From the NCBI RefSeq assembly GCF_003991155.1, contig NZ_CP031294.1: a stretch of 64,000 nucleotides of DNA, one strand, 5' to 3'. This stretch comes from Escherichia coli. GTDB taxonomy: Bacteria > Pseudomonadota > Gammaproteobacteria > Enterobacterales > Enterobacteriaceae. The notes beneath the pieces were generated by a model, which was given only the letters and a program-made list of their open reading frames with translations, was not told the origin of the DNA and ran no database searches. This document shows, piece by piece, positions 7,390 to 64,000 of this stretch (positions within the stretch are counted from its first letter, which is position 1; each line of letters begins with the position of its first letter). A program made the position numbers and the translations under genes.

Positions 7390-7444
7390 TGGTTAAAATC
7401 CTTTTAAAAGAGAGGCCCATCCTGAGCCTCTGCTTAATTACTGA

Positions 7445-8649: not shown

Positions 8650-8650
8650 A

Positions 8651-10806: not shown

Positions 10807-10850
10807 AACGCATTCTCTCTACATGGGCGGCTTTCGCCGCCCAATATTGA

Positions 10851-11771: not shown

Positions 11772-11844
11772 TTCTCGCTCCTACAAAAAGGGTGGGCGTA
11801 TAGCCCACCCTTTAACATAGATAATTACTTATCTACTTCACTGA

Positions 11845-12720: not shown

Positions 12721-12745
12721 CTATCAATTCCCTTTGATTTAGATG

Positions 12746-13633
12746 TTACTTAAGTCCAATTTTCCCCAGACCGGAGGCCAACTTATCCATAGTCGACTTG
12801 TTCTTCGGTTGGGATATTGTGTAGGTCGATTTGGAATGTGAGCCTACACCCTGCTTGGCTTCGCTACGCATCAATGCGTCAGCTTCCGGATCTGCCCGCA
12901 CAATGCGTTCAATCGCGGATTCAAACGGCAACGGCTTACCTTCACCGTCAACCAGAACAGCTCGTTCTTTGTGACCTGCCGGTTTGTCATAACCCACTAC
13001 GCTACCGTCTTCACCCACTTCAAAATGAGAACCGTAGATCACGCGGGCTTTTGCCGGGGTCATCAGAACTTTGTCACGTAGGAAGAGAGAGTTACTGAAG
13101 GAAGCGCCCACGGTCATCTCGACTAATTGAGATTTCAGTGATGCGTTTTCACTTTCCAGTGCTGCATAACGTTCGTCACGCTGTGCCAGCTCTGCCTGGT
13201 GTGCTTCGATCATCTGTTTTTTAACAGCATCGAACTCACCACGACGCTCCAGTTCAGCTTGCTCCGCCTCACGACGTGCGTTTTCTGCGGCCTGTTCAGC
13301 TTCTAAAAGCTGGCGAGCACGAGCCGGATCGATATCACCGTACTGAGCAAGCTGATCGGCCAATGTGCGCTCTTTCTCTTTGCGCTTCATGTTCTCCTTC
13401 AGCAGTTCAGCACCAGCTTTCTTGGTTTTACGAAGTTCGGCCAGTAACTCTTCCTGAGTCATGCCAGCGTATTCGTCATCGCCCTTCGGCTGCTCTTTTT
13501 GTTCACCCTGTTTGTCAGGATCTTGTGTACTCTGCTCATTATCAGCAGCTACACCGCCAGCGCCTCCACGCTCATGCGCTTCAGCGACATCCATCAGACC
13601 ACGACGGGCCAAAAGCATTTGCCACAGATTCAT
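12746..13633 (-). CDS. scaffolding protein (candidate)
   Basis: 295 aa, highly charged coiled-coil (EAEQAAENARREAEQAELERR...), between portal and capsid genes. Confidence 0.55.
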   Translation of the reverse strand: MNLWQMLLARRGLMDVAEAHERGGAGGVAADNEQSTQDPDKQGEQKEQPKGDDEYAGMTQEELLAELRKTKKAGAELLKENMKRKEKERTLADQLAQYGDIDPARARQLLEAEQAAENARREAEQAELERRGEFDAVKKQMIEAHQAELAQRDERYAALESENASLKSQLVEMTVGASFSNSLFLRDKVLMTPAKARVIYGSHFEVGEDGSVVGYDKPAGHKERAVLVDGEGKPLPFESAIERIVRADPEADALMRSEAKQGVGSHSKSTYTISQPKNKSTMDKLASGLGKIGLK

Positions 13634-13654
13634 AAAAATTCCTTTTGTTACTTA

Positions 13655-15229
13655 TCACTCGTTCTCTTGAGTAGATGAGTCCCCATTCCCTCGGGGTTGA
13701 TCTTGCCCGCTTTCTTGGGCTGCACCACGATCATAAGTAAGTACTGACTTATTTTCAAGGGTATTTAGATCATTTTTTGGAGGAAAATTCAAGAGATCTT
13801 TATCAAATTCCTTTTTCATCGCCTCAGTAATGTTCGGGAAAATCTTCTCAATAAGCATTTCCATCTGGTGACGACGTACAGAGTCCGGTGCCTGAAGTAA
13901 TGACAGTTTCTCGGCAACAGAAAATTCATCAGTAAGGCCACGAATATCGAAACTTTCTGGATATGCAATTAAAGAGTGGTCTTCGTCCAGATCTACCCCC
14001 ATCCATTTCGCAACCAGTAGCATGATTTGGCGTTCAGCCCTTTCCAGACGCTCTGCTTTTGTGACAAGCAAGCTATTTACACGCTGGAAGTCATACATTT
14101 TTGCGGCACCAGATGAATTATCGATTCCCTGTGCGTTGTCCTGCTTCGTTCGCTCACCAGCTACACCAACTGAATGGTAGATTTCGTTAATCACCGTCTT
14201 AATCGTAGTGATGATCATCTGAGCTTGTTTCGGGTCTGGTGACAGATAAAACGGCTGGTTTCCACCTTCAGAATCGTAGGTGAAGACTCGCTTTGTGCCC
14301 ATTTCAAGCACTTTAGTGTGGTTTTCATCACCAGGTAAAAGCGACTGTACCGGTATAGCCAACTGGCTAAATGTCTGATCCTGAATAATGGCATCAAGGT
14401 TTGACAGATAGTTTGCAACCGCACGATCAAGATAAGCGATATCATCGATCAACGATGGGCTGAAATACGGTGATTCACTTTCTCCAATACAATCAACAGG
14501 AAACACAGGAACTACGCCGAGATTATGCTCACCGCTATCCTCTAAAATAACTTTTGCCTGACGGCGACCTGCTCCACCAGCGCCCTTCTTCACTTCCTCA
14601 CGGAACAGATACCACTCGTTTTGTGTCCACAGACGATAACGTTGGTATTCCTGACCTGTAGAAGTAAAAGGATCTGCGTCATCACGAGCGACTTCCACAA
14701 TTAACGCCCACAACATATTCCCGTCGTCGTCCCATGCCACATCCAGCATTTGCTGAGGTGAAATCCAGTAGGCGTAGGCGCGAGCATCTTTCTTTTTCTC
14801 GTCAGCTACTGACTCAACATCACCACTCATCGTGCTATCGACAACAACCCATATGCGACCGTAAATAGACGACTGCAAATCAATAGCGGCCATAAATGAG
14901 TCAATAGAGGCATTCTGGCGAGTCGCACGTTTCCAGAAATTGCGGATCTGCTCTGGTGCCTCTTCGATATTTCTATGAATGTCTTCTTTAAAGAGATATT
15001 TGTTGATGAGGTTTACCACCTCACGAGTGTGGTTGAAGCGATAAGCACGTTCAACTCGCTCCTTAAACTCCTGATCTCCCTCTTTAAAGTAACGAAAGAT
15101 ATTGTCTGTAAACCAACCACGCCCGCCAGCGTAAGTGCTGGCGAGGAAGTCCCAATGTTCTTTTTTCTTTTCGTATTCCGGGTGGCGTCGCGCCACCAGA
15201 TCCTTAATTTGTTTGTCGTTCAATTCCAT
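13655..15229 (-). CDS. portal protein
   Basis: 524-aa ORF directly downstream of large terminase; size and acidic C-terminus typical of portal proteins. Confidence 0.7.
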   Translation of the reverse strand: MELNDKQIKDLVARRHPEYEKKKEHWDFLASTYAGGRGWFTDNIFRYFKEGDQEFKERVERAYRFNHTREVVNLINKYLFKEDIHRNIEEAPEQIRNFWKRATRQNASIDSFMAAIDLQSSIYGRIWVVVDSTMSGDVESVADEKKKDARAYAYWISPQQMLDVAWDDDGNMLWALIVEVARDDADPFTSTGQEYQRYRLWTQNEWYLFREEVKKGAGGAGRRQAKVILEDSGEHNLGVVPVFPVDCIGESESPYFSPSLIDDIAYLDRAVANYLSNLDAIIQDQTFSQLAIPVQSLLPGDENHTKVLEMGTKRVFTYDSEGGNQPFYLSPDPKQAQMIITTIKTVINEIYHSVGVAGERTKQDNAQGIDNSSGAAKMYDFQRVNSLLVTKAERLERAERQIMLLVAKWMGVDLDEDHSLIAYPESFDIRGLTDEFSVAEKLSLLQAPDSVRRHQMEMLIEKIFPNITEAMKKEFDKDLLNFPPKNDLNTLENKSVLTYDRGAAQESGQDQPRGNGDSSTQENE

Positions 15230-15255
15230 TTGAATAACCTTAGATAATTACTTAC

Positions 15256-16512
15256 CTATCGAGAACCACCAAGAATAACACGGTTTTTGACTGGATACCT
15301 ACGATGTACTGGATAGCCCAATGCGTCTGCACTATGCTCAATGCCACCTGTCTTATCCATATCTCGTGTTCCAGGCTTGTAGATGACTTTTTCCAGTGAA
15401 TCAATCAAATGCTTGCACTTCGGATCGATATACAGCCGGATATCTCCAGATGCGGTCATCAGCATTCGGTTAACAGCATTAACACGATCCGCAATTGGCG
15501 GGTGCTTTTTCGAATAATCGACACGTAAGAATCCCTTCTCTTTGAATATGTCGACGTCAGACTCCCCGCGAGCATGTTGGCGATAAGCACCTGCCGGATC
15601 TGGAAATACCGTTATCTGTGATTTCCAGCGCCAGAAGCGTCTCTCAAGCTCATCACAAACCTCTGCCGTGTTAGAGGAAAAGAGCACCAATTCATCAATT
15701 GCCCATAGCTCACCATTTGGCTGAGGTTGCAAAATTACTGAAGACATCGGGTCAATGTTGAAGTCCTGCCCTACCCATATAGGCAACCGAGGGTTGAACT
15801 GAAGCGGTTTTACATGCACGTTACGATCGAACGGGTAGTAAACGCGCCCGGACATGTTCTCAAAGCTCGCCAGGTACTCCTGAGCGAACGATTTCGGGTC
15901 CATATCGTTCTTAGCAGCTTCAATTTCCGCCGTAGGTACAAACGGAGAATCGGCAGTTACAAACTGCCAGCTCTTCCACTGTCCCTTTCTTTGCAGCTCT
16001 ACGTTCTGGCCTATAGTCCACAGTTTGTGAAATTCCGAGAAGCCTTTTGGCGTACCAATGATCAGTGCACCGCCGCGTGTCGATGAAAGAGTAGGTCGTA
16101 ACACCTTGTACCAGGTGTCAGCCTTCATATCCTGAAATTCATCAAGCACTACAAAATGCAACGCTACGCCGCGCAGAGTGTCAGGCTTATCAGCACCTTT
16201 GAGGGCGATCTCCGAACCGTTCTTCAACACGATTGTCATCGTGGTGTCGTTCTTTTTCCTAACCCACTTACGAGGCAGAACTTCCTGTAGATCGTCCCAC
16301 AAAATCTGGCGAGCCATCTGGTAAGTAGGAGCGACATACCAGACTCTTTGCTTTTTTTCCTTTGCCGCCGCACGAATAATAGTGGAGATCGACAACCGGG
16401 ATTTTCCCCAGCGTCGACCAGCACAAACAACTTTAAATCGATGCGGAGACTGGAAGACTTTCATCTGTCCAGAATGCAGTTGCACAAGACTGAGCGAGGA
16501 CGGGATTGCCAT
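15256..16512 (-). CDS. terminase large subunit
   Basis: Walker A CAGRRWGKS, Walker B VVLDEF, C-terminal nuclease-like domain; 418 aa. Confidence 0.9.
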   Translation of the reverse strand: MAIPSSLSLVQLHSGQMKVFQSPHRFKVVCAGRRWGKSRLSISTIIRAAAKEKKQRVWYVAPTYQMARQILWDDLQEVLPRKWVRKKNDTTMTIVLKNGSEIALKGADKPDTLRGVALHFVVLDEFQDMKADTWYKVLRPTLSSTRGGALIIGTPKGFSEFHKLWTIGQNVELQRKGQWKSWQFVTADSPFVPTAEIEAAKNDMDPKSFAQEYLASFENMSGRVYYPFDRNVHVKPLQFNPRLPIWVGQDFNIDPMSSVILQPQPNGELWAIDELVLFSSNTAEVCDELERRFWRWKSQITVFPDPAGAYRQHARGESDVDIFKEKGFLRVDYSKKHPPIADRVNAVNRMLMTASGDIRLYIDPKCKHLIDSLEKVIYKPGTRDMDKTGGIEHSADALGYPVHRRYPVKNRVILGGSR

Positions 16513-17144
16513 TATTCGTCCTCCCCTTCACTTCCATCATCTGTCGCATCAAATTCGCTTAGAGCTTCTTCTTCCAACGTCTCAAGCAATTCGTCATCGA
16601 TGATTTCAGGCTCGTCGTCTTCCTGACGTAATTTCGCCACCTGGGAAGGCGTAAGCTCACCAAATACCAGGTTCGGAATTTCTTCCTCGTCATTTTCCGC
16701 ATGATCCATGCCCAATGCTTTGGACGAAACTTCAAAGCATTTTGCAAGGGTATTACTGGCTCTCTGTAAGCTCTTGAGAGAATCCTCAATCGCCCCTAAA
16801 GGCTTACCCTCACGTTTGGCCGTAGTGACTTCGACCATCACCATCTGCCCCAACGCATACGCCCAGCCGTCATAACGTGTACGACGTTCTTCTATCTTTT
16901 CCGCACGGGCTTTAGCGCGAAGCTCTGCGTCAGATTTAAGAGACTCACGAACCATCTTCCCAACAGAGTCCGCGCCTTTCTCTAATCCTCGCTTTTTGAA
17001 ATGTCTGGAGAGTGTTTCACGACGAATGCCGTACTCTTCCTCCAGCTTTGAGAGTGTATATTCGCCTGACGTCCATTTGGCTTCAGCTTCGGCCCACTCC
17101 GCTGGTGTCAGGCGAGTTTTTACCTCGTCTTTTTCGACCGTCAT
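16512..17144 (-). CDS. terminase small subunit (candidate)
   Basis: 210 aa, N-terminal HTH-like region, acidic C-terminus, 1-bp overlap with TerL start. Confidence 0.6.
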   Translation of the reverse strand: MTVEKDEVKTRLTPAEWAEAEAKWTSGEYTLSKLEEEYGIRRETLSRHFKKRGLEKGADSVGKMVRESLKSDAELRAKARAEKIEERRTRYDGWAYALGQMVMVEVTTAKREGKPLGAIEDSLKSLQRASNTLAKCFEVSSKALGMDHAENDEEEIPNLVFGELTPSQVAKLRQEDDEPEIIDDELLETLEEEALSEFDATDDGSEGEDE

Positions 17145-17256
17145 AGATCCCTCTAAAACACACAGAGCGCGTCCATGCGCTCTAAAACAACTTGTTTACT
17201 GCATCTGCTAACCAACTTGTTTTCTGGGGTGTTTAATTAGGTCTGGCATGTCTTAC

Positions 17257-17316
17257 GAAGCCTGCTTCCGTATATATTTAATAAGTTACTTATTATTTAT
17301 ATATACAGATGCAGGT
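17257..17316. promoter_or_regulatory. hairpin-flanked AT-rich intergenic element (copy 1) upstream of terminase operon
   Basis: Arms cctgcttccgtatatat / atatatacagatgcagg flank palindrome aataagttacttatt; near-identical copy at 47551-47610. Confidence 0.5.
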
Positions 17317-18506: not shown

Positions 18507-19168
18507 GAATGGACCTCATCATGACTACCATTGTGATATTCCACCTTCACGCGTTCTTTGTAGTGCTTGGTGATCTGCATATCAGGGCGCAGCGCGTTCT
18601 TCAGGTCTTCGTGAGTCGTCGCCACCATTACCGTCGCACCAACCTTTCGAGCGGCACGCTGGAGGTTAGACGCCACAACCTGAGCGGTTACACGGTCGAG
18701 AACAGCGCCGAACTCGTCAGCAGCCCATACTTTAGCGCCTGACTCAATCAGTTTGGCAATCTTGAGACGATATTTCTGGCCGTCTGACATTTCAGAAGGC
18801 TTGCGAACAAACAGATATGCATCGTTCAGACCAGCCATAGATAACAACCCAAGCGCATCACTGGTCGTTTTGCCCAACTGATCGATGACGTTAACCTCAT
18901 TATCGAAGGTAAAATCATCGATGGAGGCTACAGACAGCCCTTCATCCTTCATCTGTCGTTGCAACTCGCGCAGCACAACGGATTTGCCGGAACCGGATTG
19001 GCCGGTGATGTACACCACATCGCCCTGCTTCACTTCCAGCTCCAGATTGTCGTAAAGCGTCCACTCTTTTTCGTCCAGGCCAAGCCCGAACGACTCAGCG
19101 ATTTCCAACGTGCGCGTGGTTTTATTTACGCGTGTCTGAAACGATACGTTGATGATGTATTTGCTCAT
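18503..19168 (-). CDS. ABC-type ATPase (stand-alone nucleotide-binding domain)
   Basis: Walker A GQSGSGKS, signature-like SDGQKYRL, Walker B VWAADEF, H-loop ATTHE. Confidence 0.6.
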   Translation of the reverse strand: MSKYIINVSFQTRVNKTTRTLEIAESFGLGLDEKEWTLYDNLELEVKQGDVVYITGQSGSGKSVVLRELQRQMKDEGLSVASIDDFTFDNEVNVIDQLGKTTSDALGLLSMAGLNDAYLFVRKPSEMSDGQKYRLKIAKLIESGAKVWAADEFGAVLDRVTAQVVASNLQRAARKVGATVMVATTHEDLKNALRPDMQITKHYKERVKVEYHNGSHDEVHS

Positions 19169-19866
19169 GCAGCCATCTCCCCGGAAGAGATCTTCTCCGC
19201 ATATGCCACAAATGCGTCTACCCCGCTTTCTCCCGTCATTTCTTCCATATGGGCAAGCAAATCACCAACAACAATGGCAGAGCCAGCAGGGAGCGTTTTA
19301 AAGCCCAATACGTCGACAACACGTACTTCTTCCGCTGCAACTTCACGACTGATCTCGGTGTGTTCATCCTTCTGTCGTTTAGTTTCTTCGCCAAGATCGA
19401 TAACTAGCGAGTCGGTGTCCATTTCTTCTGTCATACTGCCAACGAGAACATTCAACTCACGCTCTTCAAAGCCGAAAACCTCGATATCGTCCAGAACAAG
19501 CGACTCAAGCTCTTTCTGTAGCTTAATTGCATCGTAATCAATGCTGGCAAGTCGGTTATCTTCAAGGCGCTTCGCACGAACCTCGTCATCACTGAGATCA
19601 TCGCGAACAATAACCGGTACGCGCTCAAGTCCAGCAAAAATTGCAGCCTCACGGCGGCCGTGGCCAGTAATAATTACGTCGTTCTTATCGACCGTAATTG
19701 GCTGGTCAAATCCGCGCTTTTTAATGGCTGCGGCTAGATCTCGGATCTGCTGTTCATCATGCTTTTTGGCATTCATCTCATAGGGAATAAGATCTGCCGG
19801 GTCGCGATATACGATTTCAAACTTTTTGGTCATTACATACGCTCCTTGTAGTAGTCGACCAGCCAC
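19165..19866 (-). CDS. ParB-like nuclease domain protein
   Basis: N-terminal ParB/Srx-type motif ITGHGRREAA; acidic C-terminus. Confidence 0.55.
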   Translation of the reverse strand: MAGRLLQGAYVMTKKFEIVYRDPADLIPYEMNAKKHDEQQIRDLAAAIKKRGFDQPITVDKNDVIITGHGRREAAIFAGLERVPVIVRDDLSDDEVRAKRLEDNRLASIDYDAIKLQKELESLVLDDIEVFGFEERELNVLVGSMTEEMDTDSLVIDLGEETKRQKDEHTEISREVAAEEVRVVDVLGFKTLPAGSAIVVGDLLAHMEEMTGESGVDAFVAYAEKISSGEMAA

Positions 19867-20531
19867 ACCAGAGCCTCACCAGCGTTCTCCATTTCATTAC
19901 CGGTGTTAATAGCCTGCTCTTTGATGATGTTTTTTATGGTTTCTGCAACACGATCTGACGCATCGAAAGTTACTTTGAAGCGCATGGTCTGATGTTCCGC
20001 ACCCACACGTTCGGTTTTCTCTCGTTTGTCGGTATCGACAGGCTCATCACTACCACGAGACAACGCCTCCAGTGCTTCAAGGTCGATTGCCGCCTCTTTT
20101 GCTAAAACCATCGAGATTTCGTCGTCATACGGAGCGATTTCAGACAGTTGATAGTCAAGTTCTGACTGAATTTCTTCAATGAAGCGTTGCAATGCGATTT
20201 GGTCGTCTTCACCGTATCGCTCGTTGTCCACCAGTGACATCTGTTTAGCTACGACATCGCTAATTTTGCCCACAGAAAGCACCGGAACCGTTGAAATTCC
20301 TTGCTCAATAGCAGCACGCCAGCGATGTTCGCCGCCGAGGATTTCAAAAAATCCATCTTCAAGTTCACGAGCCAAAATTGGCTTAAAAAAGCCCAATTTT
20401 TCGATAGAACCTTTCAGTTTTTCAAAATTCTGCGCACCAACCGAATTGGTGTTCCAGGTATTCGGGCGAAGGTTGGCAACATCAACCTGCAAAATCGTGA
20501 TTTTTACATCCATTTTATTGCTACAATCCAC
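19833..20531 (-). CDS. ParB-like nuclease domain protein
   Basis: N-terminal ParB-type motif LGGEHRWRAA. Confidence 0.55.
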   Translation of the reverse strand: MDCSNKMDVKITILQVDVANLRPNTWNTNSVGAQNFEKLKGSIEKLGFFKPILARELEDGFFEILGGEHRWRAAIEQGISTVPVLSVGKISDVVAKQMSLVDNERYGEDDQIALQRFIEEIQSELDYQLSEIAPYDDEISMVLAKEAAIDLEALEALSRGSDEPVDTDKREKTERVGAEHQTMRFKVTFDASDRVAETIKNIIKEQAINTGNEMENAGEALVWLVDYYKERM

Positions 20532-22157: not shown

Positions 22158-22436
22158 ATGAGTGAAAAGAAAACAACTTACTGTCAGGTAGCATTGTCTG
22201 ATAAGGCCAATGACAAACTTGGAAAGTTTCAAGTGAAACTAAAAGAAAAAAATATCAAAATGTCTAAGGCTGAAGTCATAAATACCATTCTGGAACAATT
22301 GACAATGGCCGACTTTGACAAGGTTATATCTTCTGTCGGGGCTTCCGCTAAGACTCGTGAGAAAATCATGCGTATCTATGAGAACTCTAATATGACAAAG
22401 GAAGATCTCAAAACGCTATTAAGCAGATTAAAATAA
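22158..22436 (+). CDS. small hypothetical protein
   Basis: 92-aa lysine-rich ORF, 3 bp after helicase stop. Confidence 0.4.
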   Translation: MSEKKTTYCQVALSDKANDKLGKFQVKLKEKNIKMSKAEVINTILEQLTMADFDKVISSVGASAKTREKIMRIYENSNMTKEDLKTLLSRLK

Positions 22437-22462
22437 TCACGCTATCAATTAGGGAGACAAAG

Positions 22463-22927
22463 ATGAAGTCTCCCATACTGTTCACTTTCTGTTCTAAAAC
22501 TATCATGAAATACTCGCTTCTCCCTCTACTAACGTTACCAGTGTTGATGCTTGCCGCGTGCCAATCACACCCAATATCAATCCATGACGCCAAACCAGCA
22601 CCGCAGGCCAAAGTGTTCAAGTATCAAAGCGCAGCGCCAGCTACGTTGGTGGTAATGAGAGACACAGGTTTTGTAGGAGCTGGATGTGATGCTTCCATTT
22701 TCATCAACGGCGAAACTGTCGCAAAACTGGCTACAGGCGAAAAAGCGACTTTCCATTTAAATGCCGGAGAATTAATTGTGGGTGCATCTCTTGAAGGTGC
22801 AGGTTTATGTGCTCTAAACCCCGCTCGTCAAGAGCGAGAAACGACTCTGAAGAATGGAGACACAAAAGCGTTCAGGGTGTTTACCAGCAATTCTGGTGAC
22901 ATCGACATTCTGCCAACAACTCTGTGA
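22463..22927 (+). CDS. lipoprotein (predicted)
   Basis: GGGAGA RBS; signal peptide ending in lipobox LAAC; 154 aa. Confidence 0.55.
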   Translation: MKSPILFTFCSKTIMKYSLLPLLTLPVLMLAACQSHPISIHDAKPAPQAKVFKYQSAAPATLVVMRDTGFVGAGCDASIFINGETVAKLATGEKATFHLNAGELIVGASLEGAGLCALNPARQERETTLKNGDTKAFRVFTSNSGDIDILPTTL

Positions 22928-22931
22928 TGAC

Positions 22932-23456
22932 ATGACAACCAAAGATATTACCTACGGTATCCAAGCTGAACTCTGGCCGCGAGATTACACTAACGTTGAA
23001 AAACTACTGATGTTCTGGCGCAGAGAACAAATTCCTGTAAGGGTCACTCTCGAAGATGGCCAGGCGTTTTGCATGTACGTTTATGGCCTCATGCCATCTC
23101 GTAACAAAGTTGACCTTTGCCCAGCCCCTTTTGACAAAGAAAATCGTATAAGGCTCCCACTTGAACGCATTAGTACAATTGAATCAGGTGTGGTTGACAG
23201 TATCGCTCACGATTTCAAAGGTCGACTAACAGTTCACCCTGATTATGTCGATAATCGGCCATCACGCCGCGATTTTTTTGCAATTTGCAACCAAGCCTAC
23301 AAAGCAAACAAATCTATAAGGGTGTACATGGCGGATGGCCGTGAAATTGAGGGGGTGTCAGCAGGCGCAGATGCTTGTCAGGTTACACTACGTGTCGAGA
23401 ACGGTAGAAAAATAGTTGTTTTGTTCGATTGGGTTGAACGAATTTTGCCTTTTTGA
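22932..23456 (+). CDS. hypothetical protein
   Basis: Start placed at ATG 22932 (MTTKDITYG), same frame as ORF 22854..23456 but after lipoprotein stop. Confidence 0.4.
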   Translation: MTTKDITYGIQAELWPRDYTNVEKLLMFWRREQIPVRVTLEDGQAFCMYVYGLMPSRNKVDLCPAPFDKENRIRLPLERISTIESGVVDSIAHDFKGRLTVHPDYVDNRPSRRDFFAICNQAYKANKSIRVYMADGREIEGVSAGADACQVTLRVENGRKIVVLFDWVERILPF

Positions 23457-23459
23457 GTT

Positions 23460-23768
23460 ATGAAATCGATATTGTTACCACCATTATTTTTACTTTGCTC
23501 AGTTGCGGCAAATGCAATGGACTATAAGCCTGTCATTCAGTCGCTGATGAATGACGTGTGCTCAACGTCTCAGAATGTATCAGTTTGCATGTATCAATTT
23601 TCGGCAGCCGTAAAAGCAGGAAAAGCGATAGGCGAGAATGTGGAACTGTGTAAGAAAGTGGCAAATGAAGAACGGGCAATGTTGGATTGCGAATCTAGCG
23701 AGTCATCGGCACAGTTCGTTGATGCGCTATTTGACACCAATCGTAAGGCTGTAGAGTCTGTTCAATAA
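23460..23768 (+). CDS. secreted small protein (signal peptide)
   Basis: N-terminus MKSILLPPLFLLCSVAANA is a Sec signal; 102 aa. Confidence 0.5.
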   Translation: MKSILLPPLFLLCSVAANAMDYKPVIQSLMNDVCSTSQNVSVCMYQFSAAVKAGKAIGENVELCKKVANEERAMLDCESSESSAQFVDALFDTNRKAVESVQ

Positions 23769-24052: not shown

Positions 24053-24703
24053 ATGGCTAACATTATCATTTCTAAAAAATCCATCATTGAAGCTGCTTCC
24101 ATTGTATCCGATGAACTGCGCGAAAAAGCAGATCTGGCAACTCAAACATATAACGAACATTATAAAAATGGTACGCACACTAAAGCAGACAAAGCAAATA
24201 TGCAAGCTGCGACCACTAAACTTGCTTACTTCATCAACAACGTCGTAAACGCAGTAGAAGACGAAAAATTATGCTCTGTTTTCTACTATGCGATTAAAGC
24301 AAGCAAACAAGCGCCAGAAGTATTTTTCCGTGATGCAATGACTAATAGTTATTCTCTGGAAAAACTGGTTTATCTGGTTAAATCAATTAAATCTGGTAAA
24401 TGCGTTTATTCCATCGCTGATATGTCTGGATCTCGTGTATTCGCTTTAATCGATATGATTAACGACGAGATCGACACGTTCACTAATGGCGCTGTTTTCG
24501 ATTTAATGAATGAAGCTAAAAAAGCGTGTGAAATTAAATTGGACGCTGGTTATACTCAAGCCAACCAGTTGATCAATCTTTGCGAACGTCTTGGACTTGT
24601 TGAAAAAGTCAAAGGAGCTGGGAGCGCGAAAGCTGGTACTCAGCAATATCGCTTCATTAAAAATGATTTCTACAATTATTTAGCTGATGCTTTCAAAGCG
24701 TAA
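24053..24703 (+). CDS. hypothetical protein, probably highly expressed
   Basis: 216 aa, optimal-codon bias (ctg, cgc, ggt, gct, atc), strong promoter upstream, hairpin terminator just downstream. Confidence 0.55.
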   Translation: MANIIISKKSIIEAASIVSDELREKADLATQTYNEHYKNGTHTKADKANMQAATTKLAYFINNVVNAVEDEKLCSVFYYAIKASKQAPEVFFRDAMTNSYSLEKLVYLVKSIKSGKCVYSIADMSGSRVFALIDMINDEIDTFTNGAVFDLMNEAKKACEIKLDAGYTQANQLINLCERLGLVEKVKGAGSAKAGTQQYRFIKNDFYNYLADAFKA

Positions 24704-24751
24704 TTAATGGAATCAAGCGCCCACTATGGGCGCTTTAAAGGAGCTTTGAAA

Positions 24752-24955
24752 ATGGTCAGCTATGACAAGATCCGCGCGGAATATCGCGCAAAGTATCGCG
24801 CTTATAAACTAGAATTAATCGATGATTTAATCGCGCAACGCGACCAATTAAATTTTACGTTTTCTGATTTGCTTAACAGCAAGCGAGATTGCAAGCGCAA
24901 ACGTGAATACTTACGTTTAAGCGCATTAATCGGAAAACTTCAAAATTCTATTTAA
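24752..24955 (+). CDS. small basic hypothetical protein
   Basis: Start moved to ATG 24752 with AAGGAG RBS; ORF-track start 24707 overlaps a terminator hairpin. Confidence 0.4.
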   Translation: MVSYDKIRAEYRAKYRAYKLELIDDLIAQRDQLNFTFSDLLNSKRDCKRKREYLRLSALIGKLQNSI

Positions 24956-24975
24956 TTTTTTTAAGGAGCTTAATC

Positions 24976-33922: not shown

Positions 33923-35023
33923 ATGAGCGAGTCCAAATCGCCGGATGCCCTGAGAGCAATGGTAGCCGGTACGCTGGCTAATTTTCAGCACCCAACCCTG
34001 AAACACAACCTGACTACGCTTAAAGCGTTACACCATGTTGCGTTGATGGATGACACACTGCATGTCGAACTAATCATGCCTTTCGTGTGGAATAAGCCTT
34101 TTGAAGACCTGAAAGAGCAATGTAGTGGTGATCTGCTCCGTATCACTGGCGCAAAGGCTATTGACTGGAAGCTGTCGTACAACATTGCCACGCTTAAGCG
34201 CGTCAAAAACCAACCAGGCATTAATGGCGTTAAGAACATTATCGCCGTCAGCTCAGGCAAGGGCGGCGTGGGTAAATCCTCCACGGCGGTAAACCTGGCA
34301 CTGGCGTTGGCTGCTGAAGGTGCGAAAGTTGGTATTTTGGATGCCGATATCTATGGTCCATCAATTCCAACCATGCTGGGCGCGGAAAACCAACGTCCAA
34401 CCTCACCTGACGGTACTCACATGGCACCTATCATGTCTCATGGCCTGGCAACCAACTCTATTGGTTATCTGGTCACCGACGACAATGCAATGGTGTGGCG
34501 TGGACCGATGGCCAGCAAGGCGCTGATGCAGATGTTGCAGGAAACTCTATGGCCTGATCTGGACTATCTCGTTCTCGATATGCCGCCGGGCACTGGTGAT
34601 ATTCAGTTGACGCTGGCGCAGAACATTCCTGTAACTGGTGCGGTTGTGGTAACTACGCCGCAAGACATCGCGCTGATCGATGCGAAGAAAGGCATTGTGA
34701 TGTTCGAAAAAGTCGAAGTGCCGGTACTGGGTATCGTCGAAAACATGAGTGTGCATATTTGCAGTAACTGCGGTCATCACGAGCCAATTTTTGGCACCGG
34801 TGGCGCACAGAAACTGGCCGAGAAATACAACACGCAGTTGTTAGGCCAAATGCCACTTCATATCTCTCTTCGTGAAGATCTGGATAACGGAACACCAACC
34901 GTTATTAGTCGTCCAGATAGCGAATTTACGGCTATTTATCGTGACCTCGCAGATCGCGTTGCCGCCCAAATGTATTGGCAAGGTGAAGTAATACCTGGCG
35001 AAATCGCATTCCGCGCAGTGTGA
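33923..35023 (+). CDS. apbC: Fe-S cluster carrier ATPase ApbC/Mrp
   Basis: 366 aa; P-loop SSGKGGVGKSSTAVNLALALA; CxxC motif ICSNCGHHEP; divergent from metG as in Escherichia chromosome. Confidence 0.95.
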   Translation: MSESKSPDALRAMVAGTLANFQHPTLKHNLTTLKALHHVALMDDTLHVELIMPFVWNKPFEDLKEQCSGDLLRITGAKAIDWKLSYNIATLKRVKNQPGINGVKNIIAVSSGKGGVGKSSTAVNLALALAAEGAKVGILDADIYGPSIPTMLGAENQRPTSPDGTHMAPIMSHGLATNSIGYLVTDDNAMVWRGPMASKALMQMLQETLWPDLDYLVLDMPPGTGDIQLTLAQNIPVTGAVVVTTPQDIALIDAKKGIVMFEKVEVPVLGIVENMSVHICSNCGHHEPIFGTGGAQKLAEKYNTQLLGQMPLHISLREDLDNGTPTVISRPDSEFTAIYRDLADRVAAQMYWQGEVIPGEIAFRAV

Positions 35024-35487: not shown

Positions 35488-35547
35488 TACATTAAAGATG
35501 CTTGAAGTGTGCAATAGCGCGATGCTTTGCGCTCGTCTGGTGGCGCG

Positions 35548-35799
35548 TTATTTTTTGGCTATATCTTCTTTCTGATATACCGGATCGTTTCCTTTTGGCA
35601 GCAGGAGGCTTAACTGCCGGTAGTGCCGTAGCCGTTCCATGAAATAGGTGCGCAGGTTCTCAGGTTGCTCACGGGCTACCTGTTCCGCTATGACGGGTAT
35701 GTTCAATCGCTCTTTGTAGGCAACCCCCCTGGCAGCCAGGTCAACGTTAACTTTATTCCTTTCTTCCTGGCTTTTGGCTGCTATGTTCCAGTTGCTCAT
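35548..35799 (-). CDS. small hypothetical protein upstream of umuD-like gene
   Basis: 83-aa ORF; no confident family assignment. Confidence 0.35.
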
Positions 35800-36151
35800 G
35801 TTTAAGGCTCACATTTCCAGATGGTATTCTGAACACCCGTACCAGGCGCAAGATGAGGGTTAGCGTTCGCGCTATGCAGATATACAGCTTTAGACTTTCC
35901 GTATTGCTGACAGGCTTTATCTGCGTTTTTTGGCAGGCTATCCAAGCCAATACCAGCCATCGAACTGGATGCTAACCTTTTCACCGTCATTGTATTGCAC
36001 CATCGCACACCCAGACATAGCTAAAATCGCACCGACAATACCGCTTTTCCAAAAAGCTCTAATTAGGTCATTCGTTACCTAATGTCCGAACTGCTAAAGC
36101 ATCCAAGTTGCTGTAGAATCACATCCAATTACTTAAACCTGAAATAAGTGG

Positions 36152-37710
36152 ATGAAAATGACAAGTATTCAACAACGTGCAGAGCTTCATCGCCAGATCT
36201 GGCAAATTGCTAACGATGTCAGGGGTTCAGTCGATGGATGGGATTTTAAGCAGTACGTTTTGGGCGCGCTTTTTTACCGTTTTATCAGCGAAAATTTTTC
36301 CAGTTATATTGAAGCCGGTGATGACAGTATCTGTTATGCGAAACTGGATGACAGCGTAATTACTGATGACATTAAAGACGATGCCATCAAAACTAAAGGC
36401 TACTTCATCTACCCCAGTCAGCTTTTCTGCAACGTAGCTGCGAAAGCAAATACTAATGACAGACTGAATGCAGATTTAAACAGCATCTTCGTTGCTATCG
36501 AAAGTTCTGCTTACGGTTATCCTTCAGAAGCTGACATCAAAGGTTTGTTTGCTGATTTCGATACCACCAGTAACCGCCTGGGTAACACCGTTAAAGATAA
36601 AAATGCCCGCTTGGCTGCGGTTCTGAAAGGGGTTGAAGGGCTAAAACTTGGTGACTTCCATGAACATCAGATTGACCTGTTCGGTGACGCCTATGAGTTC
36701 CTGATTTCTAACTATGCGGCGAATGCCGGTAAGTCCGGCGGCGAGTTCTTTACACCGCAGCACGTCTCTAAGCTGATTGCACAACTGGCTATGCACGGGC
36801 AGACCCACGTTAACAAAATCTACGACCCGGCAGCAGGCTCCGGTTCGCTGTTGTTGCAGGCGAAAAAACAGTTTGATGACCATATCATCGAAGAAGGTTT
36901 TTTTGGTCAGGAAATCAACCATACGACCTATAACCTGGCGCGTATGAACATGTTTTTGCACAACATCAACTACGACAAGTTTGATATCAAGCTGGGTAAT
37001 ACACTGACTGAGCCGCACTTCAGAGATGAAAAACCGTTTGATGCCATCGTTTCTAACCCGCCGTATTCGGTGAAATGGATTGGCAGCGATGACCCGACGC
37101 TGATTAACGATGAACGTTTTGCCCCGGCTGGCGTTCTGGCCCCCAAATCCAAAGCTGACTTTGCGTTTGTATTACATGCGCTGAACTATCTTTCGGCCAA
37201 AGGTCGCGCTGCGATTGTCTGCTTCCCAGGCATTTTTTACCGTGGCGGCGCGGAGCAGAAAATCCGTCAGTATCTGGTCGACAATAACTATGTCGAAACC
37301 GTGATTTCACTGGCACCGAATCTGTTCTTTGGCACCACTATTGCCGTCAATATTCTGGTGCTGTCTAAACATAAAACGGATACCAAAGTTCAGTTTATTG
37401 ATGCCAGCGAACTGTTCAAAAAAGAGACTAACAACAACATTCTGACCGATGCTCATATCGAACAGATTATGCAGGTATTTGCCAGCAAGGAAGATGTTGC
37501 TCATCTGGCGAAATCTGTTGCGTTTGAGACTGTTGTCGCGAATGACTATAACCTGTCGGTGAGCAGCTATGTGGAAGCGAAAGATACTCGCGAAATTATC
37601 GATATCGCTGAGCTGAATGCTGAGCTGAAAACCACGGTCAGCAAAATCGACCAGTTGCGTAAAGATATTGATGCGATTGTTGCTGAGATTGAAGGTAGCG
37701 AGGTACAGGC

Positions 37711-37714
<4 letters not shown>
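36152..37714 (+). CDS. hsdM: Type I restriction-modification methyltransferase subunit (Type IC, EcoR124 family)
   Basis: 520 aa; N-terminus [26 protein letters not shown] recalled as EcoR124-family HsdM; AdoMet motif [10 protein letters not shown]; NPPY catalytic motif. Confidence 0.95.
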
Positions 37715-38970
<1,256 letters not shown>

Positions 38971-39091
38971 TTGACCATTGCTACCGACCGGATCACCTTA
39001 ACATCCGGTCTATATAGAGACTATTTTTTACACGCCGGAAGTCGCCCTTAAAGCCCTTCCGGCCCTTGCCAGACGGCACAAAGGATGCGCT

Positions 39092-42000
39092 ATGACTCAT
39101 CAGACACACACCATTGCTGAATCCAATAACTTTATCGTTCTTGATAAGTACATCAAAGCCGAGCAAACAGGCGACAGCTACCAGAGCGAATCGGACCTGG
39201 AACGTGAACTGATTCAGGATCTGCGGAATCAGGGCTATGAATTTATTTCCGTAAAATCTCAGTCGGCGATGCTGGCCAACGTTCGGGAACAGCTTCAGAG
39301 CCTCAATGGTGTGATGTTTAATGACAGCGAGTGGCGGCGCTTCACGGAGCAGTATCTGGACAACCCCAGCGATGGTATTCTGGATAAAACCCGTAAAATC
39401 CATATCGACTATATCTGCGACTTTATTTTTGACGACGGGCGACTTGAGAACATCTATTTGATAGATAAAAAGAATCTCATGCGCAATAAGGTGCAGATTA
39501 TCCAGCAGTTTGAACAGACGGGTTCTCATGCTAACCGTTATGACGTCACGATCCTGGTTAATGGTTTACCGCTGGTGCAAATCGAACTAAAAAAACGCGG
39601 GGTGGCGATTCGTGAGGCTTTCAACCAGATACATCGTTACAGTAAAGAGAGTTTTAACAGCGAAAATTCCCTGTTTAAGTATCTGCAACTGTTTGTCATT
39701 TCTAACGGCACCGATACCCGTTATTTTGCCAACACGACAAAGCGCGATAAAAACAGTTTTGACTTCACCATGAATTGGGCGAAATCAGACAACACGCTGA
39801 TTAAAGACCTCAAAGACTTTACCGCTACCTTTTTCCAGAAACATACTCTGCTGAATGTTCTGGTGAACTACAGCGTTTTTGACAGTAGTCAGACGCTACT
39901 GGTGATGCGACCGTACCAGATTGCCGCCACCGAGCGCATTCTGTGGAAAATTAAGAGTTCCTTTACAGCGAAGAACTGGTCAAAACCGGAAAGCGGTGGG
40001 TATATCTGGCATACTACCGGTTCTGGTAAAACCCTCACCAGCTTTAAAGCCGCGCGTCTGGCAACAGAGCTGGACTTTATTGATAAAGTCTTCTTTGTGG
40101 TCGACAGGAAAGACCTCGATTACCAGACCATGAAGGAATATCAGCGTTTTTCGCCAGACAGCGTCAACGGCTCGGAAAATACCGCAGGCCTTAAACGAAA
40201 TCTGGATAAGGACGATAACAAAATTATCGTCACTACTATTCAGAAACTCAATAACCTGATGAAAGCAGAAAGCGACCTGCCTGTATATAATCAGCAAGTG
40301 GTGTTTATATTTGATGAATGCCACCGCAGCCAGTTTGGAGAAGCGCAGAAAAACCTGAAGAAGAAATTCAAACGCTATTATCAGTTTGGTTTTACCGGCA
40401 CCCCTATTTTCCCGGAAAACGCTTTAGGCTCAGAAACGACCGCCAGCGTATTTGGTCGTGAATTGCATTCGTATGTAATTACCGATGCGATTCGTGATGA
40501 AAAAGTGCTCAAATTCAAGGTGGACTACAACGATGTGCGGCCACAGTTTAAATCTTTAGAGACAGAAACCGACGAGAAAAAACTGAGTGCGGCTGAAAAT
40601 CAGCAGGCATTTCTTCATCCCATGCGTATACAGGAAATTACGCAATATATTCTGAATAACTTCCGCCAGAAGACCCACCGTACTTTCCCAGGTTCCAAAG
40701 GCTTTAATGCCATGCTGGCAGTGAGTAGCGTGGATGCCGCGAAAGCCTATTACGCGACGTTTAAACGGTTACAAGAGGAAGCAGCTAATAAATCGGCTAC
40801 CTATAAACCGCTGCGTGTTGCAACAATCTTCTCCTTTGCCGCCAATGAAGAACAAAATGCCATTGGTGAAATTTCCGATGAAACTTTTGATACCAGCGCA
40901 ATGGACAGCAGTGCTAAAGAGTTTCTTGACGCTGCAATTCGTGAGTATAACAGCTATTTTAAAACTAACTTCAGCACCGACAGTAACGGTTTTCAGAACT
41001 ACTATCGTGATTTAGCCCAACGGGTTAAAAATCAGGATATCGATCTGTTAATTGTCGTTGGGATGTTTTTAACCGGCTTCGACGCTCCAACATTGAACAC
41101 GCTATTCGTCGATAAAAACTTGCGTTTTCACGGCCTGATGCAGGCATTCTCCCGTACCAACCGCATTTATGACGCTACTAAAACCTTCGGTAACATCGTC
41201 ACTTTTCGGGATCTGGAACGCTCAACCATTGATGCCATAACGCTGTTTGGTGATAAAAATACTAAAAATGTGGTGTTAGAAAAGAGTTATGCTGAGTATA
41301 TGGAAGGCTTTACAGATGCTGCCACTGGTGAAGCTAAACGCGGCTTTATGGCAGTAGTTTCAGAACTGGAACAACGGTTCCCTGACCCTGCCAGTATTGA
41401 AAGTGAAAAACAGAAGAAAGACTTCGTAAAACTGTTTGGTGAATACCTGCGTGCCGAGAACATCCTGCAAAACTATGATGAATTTGCCACGCTGAAAGCC
41501 CTGCAACAAATCGATCTTAGCGATCCTGTTGCGGTAGAAAAATTCAAAGCAGAACATTATGTGGATGATGAAAAGTTCGCTGAATTGCAAACAATTCGTC
41601 TCCCTGCTGAACGCAAGATTCAGGATTATCGTTCTGCCTATAACGATATTCGCGACTGGCAGCGCCGTGAGAAAGAAGCTGAGAAAAAAGAGAAATCAAC
41701 CACTGACTGGGATGACGTAGTTTTTGAGGTCGATTTGCTGAAGTCTCAGGAAATAAACCTGGATTATATCCTTGGACTGATTTTCGAACACAACAGACAA
41801 AATAAAGGCAAGGGCGAAATGATCGAAGAGGTCAAACGCTTAATTCGTTCAAGCCTGGGGAACCGGGCGAAAGAGGGCCTGGTGGTCGATTTTATTCAGC
41901 AAACGAACCTGGATGATTTACCAGACAAAGCCAGTATCATTGAGGCATTCTTTACGTTTGCTCAACGCGAACAGCAACGTGAAGCAGAAGCATTGATAAA

Positions 42001-42208
42001 AGAAGAAAATCTCAATGAAGAGGCGGCGAAACGCTATATTCGCACGTCTTTAAAACGCGAATACGCCACCGAAAATGGCACAGAATTAAACGAGACATTA
42101 CCAAAACTTAGTCCGTTAAACCCGCAATATAAAACGAAAAAACAGACCGTTTTCCAGAAAATCGTCACGTTTATTGAAAAGTTCAAAGGAGTAGGTGGGC
42201 AGATATAG
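39092..42208 (+). CDS. hsdR: Type I R-M restriction endonuclease/translocase subunit
   Basis: 1038 aa, same length as EcoR124I HsdR; SF2 helicase motifs (GSGKT, FDECH), N-terminal nuclease region. Confidence 0.95.
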
Positions 42209-42266
42209 TGTATTAATCTGAACCAGATCTGGCAGACATCTGTGCAAATTGCAGATAGCTGTCAGA

Positions 42267-42677
42267 TCAAACCATCGTAGGGATGTTTGTATCCACTTTG
42301 AACTCAGGTACACCAACGAACTCTTTAACCTTCATCTGGTAGCCGGTTCTGTCAGTTTTGATGACTTCCTGTTTGCCCTCTATAAACTGCTCACGCCACT
42401 CGTCGCGACGGGAAGCTGGCATGATCAGCAAAACGTTAGTCATATCCGTGACCTTCCTCCAGTACTCGGCCCAAATATTCTGTTTCACCCATTCCAGATC
42501 GACTTTATCCAGCCAAGCTCGATTCAAACGTGAGCGTTCTTCATCTGGTCGATGGTTTAGTCTCAGCAGGCGATTAATCATGTTGTGGCGTTCGTCGCCA
42601 TAAACGAAGTCGTGTACCTGATACATGAAGGCGATCTCTTTCTCGCACTCGGCCACGATTTCGTGGATGACATTCAT
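42267..42677 (-). CDS. hypothetical protein convergent with hsdR
   Basis: 136-aa ORF with AGGA RBS; no family recognised. Confidence 0.4.
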   Translation of the reverse strand: MNVIHEIVAECEKEIAFMYQVHDFVYGDERHNMINRLLRLNHRPDEERSRLNRAWLDKVDLEWVKQNIWAEYWRKVTDMTNVLLIMPASRRDEWREQFIEGKQEVIKTDRTGYQMKVKEFVGVPEFKVDTNIPTMV

Positions 42678-47631: not shown

Positions 47632-48225
47632 CTAAGCAGCCTTCTTTGATGGTCTTTTTTTCCTGATCACATTCGCAGGATCATACCCTCCCAGACTTTT
47701 CATGACGTCCAAAGGGATCTTGCTTATAGAGTGCCCAGCGTCCTGACAGAATCCTCGAAAAACAACGAGCATACTGCCACCGGGGTTGATGTTTACTTCT
47801 ACCTGACCCAAATTGACGTCAGGCTCGACAAACGCTACGCGGCCACCAGACAGAATAATCGTCTCATTCGCACACTCTGTTGCACGCTCATACCACTTTG
47901 TATCGAGGGATTGAGGAATTAGCATCACTGTTGTAACTCCGCGAGCCTGCTCACGTATAGCCGCATCAATCCAGGGGGAGATTTTGGAGTAGGGTGGATT
48001 GAGGAAGGCAATTGTACCTGGCTGTCCCCATTCAGATTTCAAAGCATCACGCTCAACGCCTATGAAATTAGGCAGCTTCGCATTGTCCTTGTTGCAGGCA
48101 ACGTCAACATCAAATGTCACTCCAAGATAACGTTGAATGGCAGAAAACAGCCAGTCAGGTGTTCTCCAGAGGTCACGAAGAGAGTTGTCGCGCTTTCGCT
48201 GTTTGATTTTTTCGGCTGCAATCAT
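47632..48225 (-). CDS. DNA N6-adenine methyltransferase (phage Dam-like, orphan)
   Basis: NPPY catalytic motif (AFLNPPYSKISPWIDAA); 197 aa; no adjacent restriction gene. Confidence 0.7.
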   Translation of the reverse strand: MIAAEKIKQRKRDNSLRDLWRTPDWLFSAIQRYLGVTFDVDVACNKDNAKLPNFIGVERDALKSEWGQPGTIAFLNPPYSKISPWIDAAIREQARGVTTVMLIPQSLDTKWYERATECANETIILSGGRVAFVEPDVNLGQVEVNINPGGSMLVVFRGFCQDAGHSISKIPLDVMKSLGGYDPANVIRKKRPSKKAA

Positions 48226-62612: not shown

Positions 62613-63257
62613 TTACAGCGCGTCAGTGGGCTTTTTACGCGCTGCATTTATGCTTATGACGCCAGCTTTAGGACGTGGATCGACAAGGTTCAGTTCTTCT
62701 TCGCTATGGTATTCAAGGTCGAACTCACGTTTTACATGTCTGATGTAGATTGCAGTGAGCAGGCTATCTTTGGTCAGGAAGTGTCCGTAGGATTTGCGGA
62801 TCACTTCTTCAACCTTCTCGATTTTCTCACCACCCATGCAGAGGTGATTAAACCAGCTGTGTTTCCGCAACATCTCGTCAACTGGGCCTGAGTAAACCTT
62901 GTCTACTTTCCCAAAACGAATGATTTTTCCTGTATCTGCGGATACAAGGCAAATCAGTTTGTCTGGTGATAAACGATCTCGCCACGTTACTCCTGAACGG
63001 AGTGTGTTGAAGTAGGGCGCATCCAATCCGATGATCGGTTTACGAAATGCGAGCAATGGAACGTACCTGATACAACTATTCAAATGAAAGTTCACACCAG
63101 CCTTATCAAGTTTAATTCTGGTTTCGTAGATCGGGCACTTCGCCGCTATACCGCAGATATCACAAAGTAACTTCTGCTTATTCAGGTTGGAATTTGATTC
63201 GATAGTGTAGGAGCCGTCCTCAAGACGACGAACCCAGCGCGTGCGTTTTAGATCCAT
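62613..63257 (-). CDS. hypothetical protein adjacent to iteron origin (Cys-rich N-terminus)
   Basis: 214-aa ORF; CDICG...C motif; start 50-200 bp from iteron array 1. Confidence 0.4.
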   Translation of the reverse strand: MDLKRTRWVRRLEDGSYTIESNSNLNKQKLLCDICGIAAKCPIYETRIKLDKAGVNFHLNSCIRYVPLLAFRKPIIGLDAPYFNTLRSGVTWRDRLSPDKLICLVSADTGKIIRFGKVDKVYSGPVDEMLRKHSWFNHLCMGGEKIEKVEEVIRKSYGHFLTKDSLLTAIYIRHVKREFDLEYHSEEELNLVDPRPKAGVISINAARKKPTDAL

Positions 63258-63354
63258 AATCGTTTTTTCAGTAGTTATTGGCCGATGCTACGATAACTCA
63301 TTAGGCATACCTTAATCTGCATTTGCCTGTTTTACTTATCCCAGTTATCCACTG

Positions 63355-63430
63355 GATAGATCCAAATAAGAGATCCCAAGTAAGATCAAATAGAAGATCC
63401 AAAGAGATCCCCGATCGCCTCTAGCCGTTG
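63355..63430. promoter_or_regulatory. DnaA-box-like site plus cluster of six GATC sites
   Basis: ttatccact followed by agatcc/agatccc/agatca/agatcc/agatcccc/cgatcg within ~65 bp. Confidence 0.6.
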
Positions 63431-63454
63431 CGGTTACTGGTCTGAAAGGGTGTT

Positions 63455-63568
63455 GCCATCCACTATGGAGAGCAAAGAAACCTCTGTAGAGAGCTGAATA
63501 ACCGCTATGAAGAGTAAAACAACCACTCTGGAGAGCTGTATATATCCACTGTAGAGAGTAGAGCACAT
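63455..63568. repeat. iteron array 1 (five ~22-bp direct repeats, core CCACTNTAGAGAG)
   Basis: atccactatggagag, cctctgtagagag, ccgctatgaagag, ccactctggagag, ccactgtagagag at ~22-bp spacing. Confidence 0.8.
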
Positions 63569-63716
63569 TGTCTTTTATGGATAACTTAATGACTTAATTC
63601 TTCATTAACATACTGATATACATAGATATATTTTAAACTCTACTCTTAGTCATGATTCTTATGTCCTTAAATATCCACAGAAGAGTAGAGTTACCTGTTC
63701 TTGAAATCCTCTGATT

Positions 63717-63725
63717 TTTATCCAC
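63717..63725. promoter_or_regulatory. consensus DnaA box TTATCCACA
   Basis: Exact 9-mer read in sequence, preceding GATC-containing repeats and iteron array 2. Confidence 0.6.
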
Positions 63726-63837
63726 AGGCCCGATCCAGTAATTCAGATCACAAAGAGAACCAAAGAGACCCATAAAGACCCAATAAGATCCCCGCCCACC
63801 TCAAACCGTTGTGCCATCTGCCTTCAGACATGATCGA

Positions 63838-63960
63838 TATCCACTATAGAGAGCGAATAATCCACTATAGGGAGCAAAGCAACCACTATAGAGAGGAGAA
63901 AAACCACTATAGACGGTAGGATAACCGCTGTGATGAGTGCTACTATCCACTGTAATCAGC
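63838..63960. repeat. iteron array 2 (six ~21-bp direct repeats, core CCACTATAGAGAG)
   Basis: ccactatagagag, ccactatagggag, ccactatagagag, ccactatagacgg, ccgctgtgatgag, ccactgtaatcag. Confidence 0.8.
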
Positions 63961-64000
63961 AAAGGCCACCAAAGCCGTCGAATAACAAGAGACATTTGGA

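Follow-up and report, generated by a model that had tools for sequence, protein, structure and literature searches.

A putative P1/RepFIB-type replication origin region with two tandem modules in an SSU5-family phage-plasmid from Escherichia coli

The iteron-bearing region upstream of repA

The 64,000-nt stretch of Escherichia coli contig NZ_CP031294.1 (NCBI RefSeq assembly GCF_003991155.1) analyzed here, referred to as the window, belongs to a phage-plasmid of the SSU5 family, and its last part carries the putative replication origin and copy-control region that is the subject of this work. Between positions 63336 and 63965, two tandem modules of one design were identified, each composed of one or two DnaA boxes, AGATCC-type heptamers, a G+C-rich spacer and 21-bp direct repeats (iterons), of which the distal module contains five and the repA-proximal module six (Table 1). 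The iterons are spaced by 21-23 bp and follow the consensus AaCCACTaTaGAGAGcaaA. Their core pattern was matched 10 times in the 64-kb window at an expectation of 0.64, with 9 of the 10 matches falling into 63336-63965, and no shuffled sequence reached 10 matches. A first-pass annotation, made from the letters of the window alone, had described two arrays of five to six direct repeats of ~22 bp, each preceded by a DnaA-box-like 9-mer. Both arrays were recovered, with the repeat length corrected to 21 bp, and so were the 9-mers, TTATCCACT before array 1 and the perfect box TTATCCACA before array 2.

The distal heptamer run is the densest GATC cluster of the window (six in 59 bp, 63359-63416; expected 0.27 per 60 bp, Poisson P ~4e-7), and its GATC positions were invariant across five lineages. 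The GATC-dense stretch that had been assigned to each array was thus found in full only in the distal module; the proximal run, with three GATC, is about half as dense. The A+T-rich spacer reported between the arrays is indeed A+T-rich in this element (70% at 63561-63713 versus 54% for the whole window), but this property is not conserved, as the relatives showed values of 54-58%. A function of the spacer as a conserved unwinding element was therefore rejected, the A+T richness being specific to the pLF82 lineage. Sequence conservation within the spacer was confined to its two DnaA-like islands. The spacer also contains a perfect 12-nt inverted repeat (AACTCTACTCTT / AAGAGTAGAGTT, 63636-63647 / 63681-63692) with an iteron-tail-like right arm; the surrounding sequence was poorly kept in pMT1-type relatives (56% mean identity for the spacer as a whole).

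In every relative whose sequence runs on, among them those 99.8-100% identical to the window, a 351-aa RepA starts at the base after position 64000, which is where the first-pass annotation had expected an initiator to be sought. The protein matched the Rep3_N (WH1) domain with E = 2.6e-10 and, weakly, the Rep3_C (WH2) domain with E = 0.0014, a value above the threshold of 0.001; it also matched phrog_775. Its amino acid sequence identity was 61-63% to classic IncFIB RepA (F / pO157-like plasmids), 57% to that of IncFIB(K), ~51% to the Rep of the Klebsiella pKPHS1 type, 47.5% to RepA of P1 / P7, and 44% to the p0111-type 'RepFIB' protein. Downstream of repA, the relatives carry 12 further iterons, six on the plus and six on the minus strand (positions 8661-9139 of L001, outside the window; L numbers designate sequences of the comparison set). 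Around repA of L001, 17 iteron matches were counted versus 0.21 expected. Numerous plasmid records stop at the base equivalent to 64000 and open with repA, which suggests that the window was cut from a record rotated to start at this gene; the sequence beyond 64000 is then probably the start of the same circle.

Table 1. Elements of the putative origin region, given in window coordinates.
Feature	Position	Strand	Remarks
Distal DnaA boxes, tandem: degenerate TTATCCCAG at 63336, then TTATCCACT at 63345	63336..63353	+	aligned to the tandem pair of DnaA boxes in P1 oriR (K02380 729-746)
Distal heptamer run: AGATCCA, AGATCCC, AGATCAA, AGATCCA, AGATCCC, then CGATCG	63358..63416	+	6 GATC (Dam) sites
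Distal G+C-rich spacer	63417..63457	+	56% G+C; same position as the G+C-rich spacer in P1 oriR
Iteron array 1, five 21-bp direct repeats	63458..63564	+	starts 63458, 63479, 63500, 63521, 63544; putative RepA-binding sites
Inter-module spacer, ~150 bp	63565..63713		A+T-rich in the pLF82 lineage only
DnaA-like box TTATCCATA in the inter-module spacer	63576-63584	-	1 mismatch
DnaA-like box ATATCCACA in the inter-module spacer	63671-63679	+	1 mismatch
Proximal DnaA box TTATCCACA	63718..63726	+	perfect consensus; one of only two perfect boxes in 64 kb
Proximal heptamer run: CGATCCA, AGATCAC, AGAACCA, AGACCCA, AGACCCA, AGATCCC	63731..63792	+	Dam-site-depleted; 3 GATC (63732, 63746, 63787)
Proximal spacer, heptamers to iterons	63793..63838	+	one GATC, at 63832
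Iteron array 2, six 21-bp direct repeats adjoining repA	63839..63965	+	starts 63839, 63860, 63881, 63902, 63923, 63945
Candidate repA promoter elements inside array 2	63917..63946	+	P1 alignment and invariant columns
repA leader	63966..64000	+	repA ATG follows at 64001, beyond the window end; L001 7602 = window 64001

Relation to P1, RepFIB and the SSU5-like phage-plasmids

The reference origin oriR of P1 is annotated (K02380 and NC_005856) as a pair of tandem DnaA boxes followed by five Dam heptamers, then a G+C-rich spacer, and finally five iterons that contain the promoter PrepA. Aligned with its P1 oriR counterpart, the distal DnaA/heptamer core of the element showed 63 identities in 81 positions. 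Both replicons share the order of parts, the ~21-bp phasing of the iterons, repA, and a mixed-orientation iteron array downstream of it (incA in P1); both elements are plasmid prophages, and their RepA proteins are homologous members of the Rep_3 family. Of the P1-type features, an adjacent Rep_3 initiator (in the relatives), ~5 phased upstream iterons, DnaA boxes with GATC heptamers and G+C spacer, and the downstream array were found; the DnaA/heptamer part is complete in the distal module, whereas the proximal one has a single perfect DnaA box but only three GATC. Thus, the resemblance to P1 oriR/incC/incA pointed out in the first-pass annotation was borne out at the level of the core, of RepA and of the 12 iterons downstream of repA. 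Differences from P1 were also evident. The iterons are unrelated (ATCCACTATAGAGAG in the element, GATGTGTGCTGGAGGG in P1), so that specificity and incompatibility group should differ; the oriR unit is single in P1 and present twice in tandem in the element; the downstream iterons number 12 in the relatives of the element and nine in P1; and the phage backbone is that of an SSU5-family siphovirus as opposed to a myovirus.

By the definition quoted in PMC10999674, IncY plasmids have P1-type iterons and a RepA at least ~72% identical to that of P1. With unrelated iterons and a RepA only 47.5% identical, the element was rejected as a member of this group. Membership in the classic RepFIB group (P307 / F / pO157) was likewise rejected on account of the RepA identity of 61-63%, other iterons and the presence of one module in that group. 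Classic RepFIB (P307 / pO157), IncFIB(K) and p0111-type replicons have a homologous RepA and share the layout of DnaA box, GATC heptamers, G+C spacer and iterons; they differ in having a single upstream module and other iteron sequences. The replicon family of the element comprises pMT1 (Yersinia pestis), pHCM2 (Salmonella Typhi), SSU5 and pLF82/Cyrano, with RepA proteins 91-100% identical. Its 743-bp control region is colinear with the pMT1/pHCM2/SSU5 type at ~80% identity, and the counts are alike (six distal and three proximal GATC, five distal and five to six proximal iterons). Differences from these replicons are at the lineage level only, the A+T-rich spacer being confined to the pLF82 type. 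One initiator serving several iteron clusters or origins has precedents in the alpha/beta/gamma origins of R6K and the iteron groups of RK2 oriV; in those plasmids, the clusters do not repeat a full unit of DnaA box, Dam heptamers and iterons in tandem, and the initiators are only distantly related.

Over the whole window, 55.4 of 64 kb matched Escherichia phage Cyrano at ~98%, and this part includes the terminase, capsid and tail genes (window 1-17277) as well as a block of SbcCD, RuvC-like, NrdAB and ThyX genes adjoining the origin. The last 1.6 kb were 99.8% identical to Cyrano, ~80% identical to Salmonella phage SSU5, and 99.9% identical to ~50 circular E. coli plasmids of 105-120 kb typed IncFIB. 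Virion and DNA-metabolism genes are thus combined with a plasmid replicon and near-identical circular plasmid records, as in the SSU5 supergroup of phage-plasmids, and the element is an already known SSU5-family phage-plasmid of the pLF82/Cyrano type. The first-pass annotation had arrived at a phage-plasmid, and had proposed circularity as a check; the former was correct, though not new, and the latter was seen in the relatives. Cyrano is pLF82, for which ~5.5 copies per cell and detectable virions have been reported (PMC9928086). The plasmid state postulated earlier therefore holds for Cyrano, with the term low-copy to be understood in relative terms. According to the entry for Ni et al. 2008 in the table of PMC6199537, a cloned pMT1 replicon displaces pMT1 by incompatibility.

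Two ParB-like genes had been adduced as further support for plasmid maintenance. This argument is a weak one, as they scored below the NCBIfam ParB cut-off (43 versus 58.45 bits) and have no adjacent ParA gene. The two open reading frames (ORFs; 19165-19866 and 19833-20531, minus strand) matched phrog_930 and phrog_723 and are followed by genes for ABC-type ATPases; the ParA annotated in Cyrano (CYRAN_28) maps outside the window.

On the basis of the observed anatomy, homologies and conservation pattern, we consider window 63336-64000 to be, with a probability of about 0.92, the replication origin and copy-control region of a P1/RepFIB-type (Rep_3) plasmid-prophage replicon in an SSU5-family phage-plasmid. 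This replicon sets the plasmid lifestyle, the incompatibility type and the copy number in the largest known group of enterobacterial phage-plasmids, which includes the Y. pestis virulence plasmid pMT1, S. Typhi pHCM2 and resistance-carrying relatives. Finding it here is no novelty in itself; the duplication of the origin unit is a concrete lead, if a modest one.

The sequence next to the origin was compared among SSU5-like phage-plasmids with other initiators. A divergent ORF of 214 aa (62613-63257, minus strand; phrog_2105, no NCBIfam match, 'ASCH' in the Cyrano annotation) and the DnaA/heptamer core (63258-63420) were ~71-79% identical in relatives with a different Rep and different iterons, namely the Klebsiella pKPHS1 type and the E. 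coli rep_cluster_488 type, with the similarity ending at the G+C spacer. This pattern of sequence similarity suggests that iterons and rep are replaced jointly in replicon swaps, with the host-factor core staying in place. In two plasmid records from Klebsiella and E. coli (L011, 2395-3612; L012, 2396-3610), the 'RepB family' ORFs are annotated ~120 bp too early and cross five iterons; the homologous rep start is the ATG at ~2516-2517, directly after a DnaA box.

Spread, conservation and possible roles of the two modules

The two-module layout was found in pMT1, pHCM2, SSU5, Enterobacter plasmids, two divergent E. coli / Salmonella variants and 16 contigs from IMG/VR, the sequence being colinear at ~80% identity and the element counts identical. 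It was also present next to more distant RepA relatives of ~70-76% identity (L033, L036, L040, L041). Large plasmids from Pantoea agglomerans (180 kb) and Rahnella aquatilis (468 kb), which are not known to be phage-plasmids (gene content not examined), have it as well. Single modules occur in P1, p0111-type RepFIB, classic IncFIB (pO157), a Salmonella IncFIB plasmid, IncFIB(K) and an Acinetobacter plasmid, as well as in SSU5-like phage-plasmids of the pKPHS1 and rep_cluster_488 types and in L034/L035. In L039, a full distal module is followed proximally by iterons only. Within clades, distal modules clustered with distal and proximal with proximal ones, indicating that the duplication predates the splits of those clades.

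Conservation of each segment was expressed as mean pairwise identity over five lineages. Values of 78% for the distal core, 85% for array 1, 83% for the proximal core and 77% for array 2 were obtained, and the inter-module spacer and the repA leader gave 56% and 62%, respectively. The proximal core as a decaying relic was rejected, given its 83% versus the 56% of the spacer, and, as judged from these comparisons, both module copies are under selection. Among nine lineages with two full modules, the distal core contained four to six GATC and the proximal core one to four, the proximal number never exceeding the distal one; the Rahnella heptamers, read by eye, fit this pattern. The proximal heptamers hold the frame AGNNCCN, with GAACC, GACCC or GTTCC in the middle ones, and these non-GATC variants are conserved across the pLF82/pMT1 clade and are found again in Rahnella and L040. 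The replicon is unusual only in that its whole oriR unit is duplicated in tandem. No description of this duplication was found in the searchable open-access literature, which did not cover the original 1998 pMT1 sequence papers and the 2018 plasmid-prophage survey, so that it may have been described earlier.

In array 2, the motif TAGGAT (63917-63922), located in the gap between iterons 4 and 5, has the very sequence of the annotated -10 element of P1 PrepA and lies at the homologous position. An extended -10 element, TGCTACTAT (63938-63946; form TGnTAnTAT), overlaps the last iteron and was invariant in five lineages. Lineage comparison revealed no conserved counterpart of these elements in array 1. 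The proximal module thus likely carries the repA promoter, as far as alignment can indicate, and array 2 would serve as RepA-binding operator, with or without origin function.

From the homology with P1 oriR, we propose the following mode of action. RepA, encoded directly downstream, would bind the 21-bp iterons, whose spacing corresponds to two helical turns, and together with host DnaA on the flanking boxes would open the adjacent heptamer region. Through the GATC sites of the heptamers, Dam methylation and sequestration by SeqA would control the timing of initiation. When bound to array 2 next to repA, RepA would occlude the repA promoter and in this way regulate its own synthesis, and the 12 iterons downstream of repA would exert incA-like negative copy control via titration and handcuffing; the extra upstream array probably damps the copy number, too. 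With regard to the two copies, we favor a division of labor. The distal one, with its full P1-like set including tandem DnaA boxes, six GATC and a far-side DnaA box, is the more probable methylation-controlled initiation site, and the proximal one may act as promoter/operator with a Dam-depleted core that retains some function.

A number of points weigh against this picture or parts of it. The presence of repA in the exact source molecule is taken from relatives 99.8-100% identical, the gene itself lying outside the window, and we infer RepA binding, the opening site, the transcription start, the use of the promoter and the copy that fires. A generic promoter/terminator scan gave counts at the level of chance, with four consensus promoter sites versus 4.0 expected, so that the proposed promoter rests on P1 homology and the invariant columns. 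GC skew across the window followed gene strand only and gave no independent origin signal. Moreover, conservation of the proximal core (83%) is no lower than that of the distal one (78%), and by its position relative to repA, which is that of oriR in P1, the proximal core could itself be the firing origin. The data are equally compatible with a division of labor, with two active origins, and with a proximal-only origin accompanied by a distal control locus.

That both modules are active origins served by one RepA, the Dam-rich distal and the Dam-poor proximal one differing in their dependence on methylation and SeqA, is possible, though we would not expect it. A DnaA box, the AGNNCCN heptamer frame, a G+C spacer and at least five iterons are retained with each core, and the conservation of either one clearly exceeds that of the inter-module spacer; in pLF82, pMT1, L009, L042, Rahnella and L040, the proximal heptamers that lack GATC are conserved as such, which argues for selection and not decay. 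The same conservation could, however, reflect a regulatory role of the proximal core, such as DnaA or SeqA control of repA transcription, and in L039 this core is entirely lost. In an evolutionary extension, put forward here only tentatively, the duplication would be an old, selectively maintained trait of one RepA clade (the pMT1, pHCM2, SSU5 and pLF82 phage-plasmids plus the large Pantoea and Rahnella plasmids) that provides two functional initiation/control cores with one initiator, the proximal core having specifically lost the Dam sites of its middle heptamers, with the heptamer frame retained, and thereby escaping SeqA sequestration or the need for methylation, and the distal one remaining fully under methylation control. 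If true, this would represent a built-in dual mode of initiation control that has not been described for P1, F or RepFIB.

Less probable still is that the proximal module is the sole origin, as in P1, and that the distal one is an upstream incA-like incompatibility or copy-control iteron sink with an ancestral core. The proximal module occupies the oriR position of P1 beside repA and has the candidate promoter inside its iterons, and extra iterons lower the copy number in P1-type replicons (PMC10999674). A pure iteron sink, however, needs neither DnaA boxes nor six invariant GATC, yet the distal module keeps them in all lineages examined; an incA-like array is already present downstream of repA, and the only complete core in L039 is the distal one.

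It is highly improbable that the repeats are a packaging site (pac/cos) of the phage, its lytic origin or a partition centromere. Non-coding DNA rich in repeats would suit any of these roles and ParB-like ORFs exist elsewhere in the window, but the iteron is found another 12 times beyond repA, layout and core sequence match P1 oriR, the dual module with the same iteron type lies upstream of rep in the large Pantoea and Rahnella plasmids, the terminase genes are ~46 kb away, and the genes for lytic replication (helicase, primase and Pol III alpha) are in another part of the genome. The idea that the arrays code for protein (mechanical ORFs 63345-63566 and 63801-63995, minus strand) can practically be dismissed: the 21-bp period, a multiple of three, does keep frames open in the source sequence, but both ORFs are interrupted by stop codons in pMT1, L009, L042 and L030 and no relative has a gene annotated there. 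A packaging site and a coding function were the two readings of the repeats that the first-pass annotation had named as fatal to its proposal, and both were rejected.

Should the Dam-rich and Dam-poor copies of the favored division of labor split origin and operator roles, or should both fire, the region would be a case of natural sub-functionalization of an iteron origin. It would then offer a handle on how P1-type replicons tune methylation/SeqA control and copy number.

Other genes in the window

A scan of the whole window with Rfam revealed no family at the gathering score. A block of 6.8 kb (35490-42295) has no counterpart in Cyrano and holds a complete type I restriction-modification system (36152-42208, plus strand), in which hsdM (651 bits versus TIGR00497) is followed by an hsdS-like ORF, and hsdR scored 766 bits versus TIGR00348. 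The block looks like a cargo defense island of this phage-plasmid variant. Further segments without a Cyrano match were located at 22409-23765 and 24747-24958, and the ORFs 22463-22927, 22854-23456 and 24053-24703 matched no NCBIfam family.

The ORF at 33923-35023 (plus strand), designated 'MinD' in the Cyrano annotation, was identified as an equivalog of the Fe-S cluster carrier ApbC/Mrp (759 bits at a cut-off of 348). In Cyrano it adjoins a gene for methionyl-tRNA synthetase, and it resembles part of an mrp-metG segment captured from a host more than a partition ATPase. At 47632-48225, the minus strand encodes a phage N6-adenine DNA methyltransferase (TIGR01712, 113.9 bits versus a cut-off of 97.05); if GATC-methylating, this enzyme could act on the origin heptamers.

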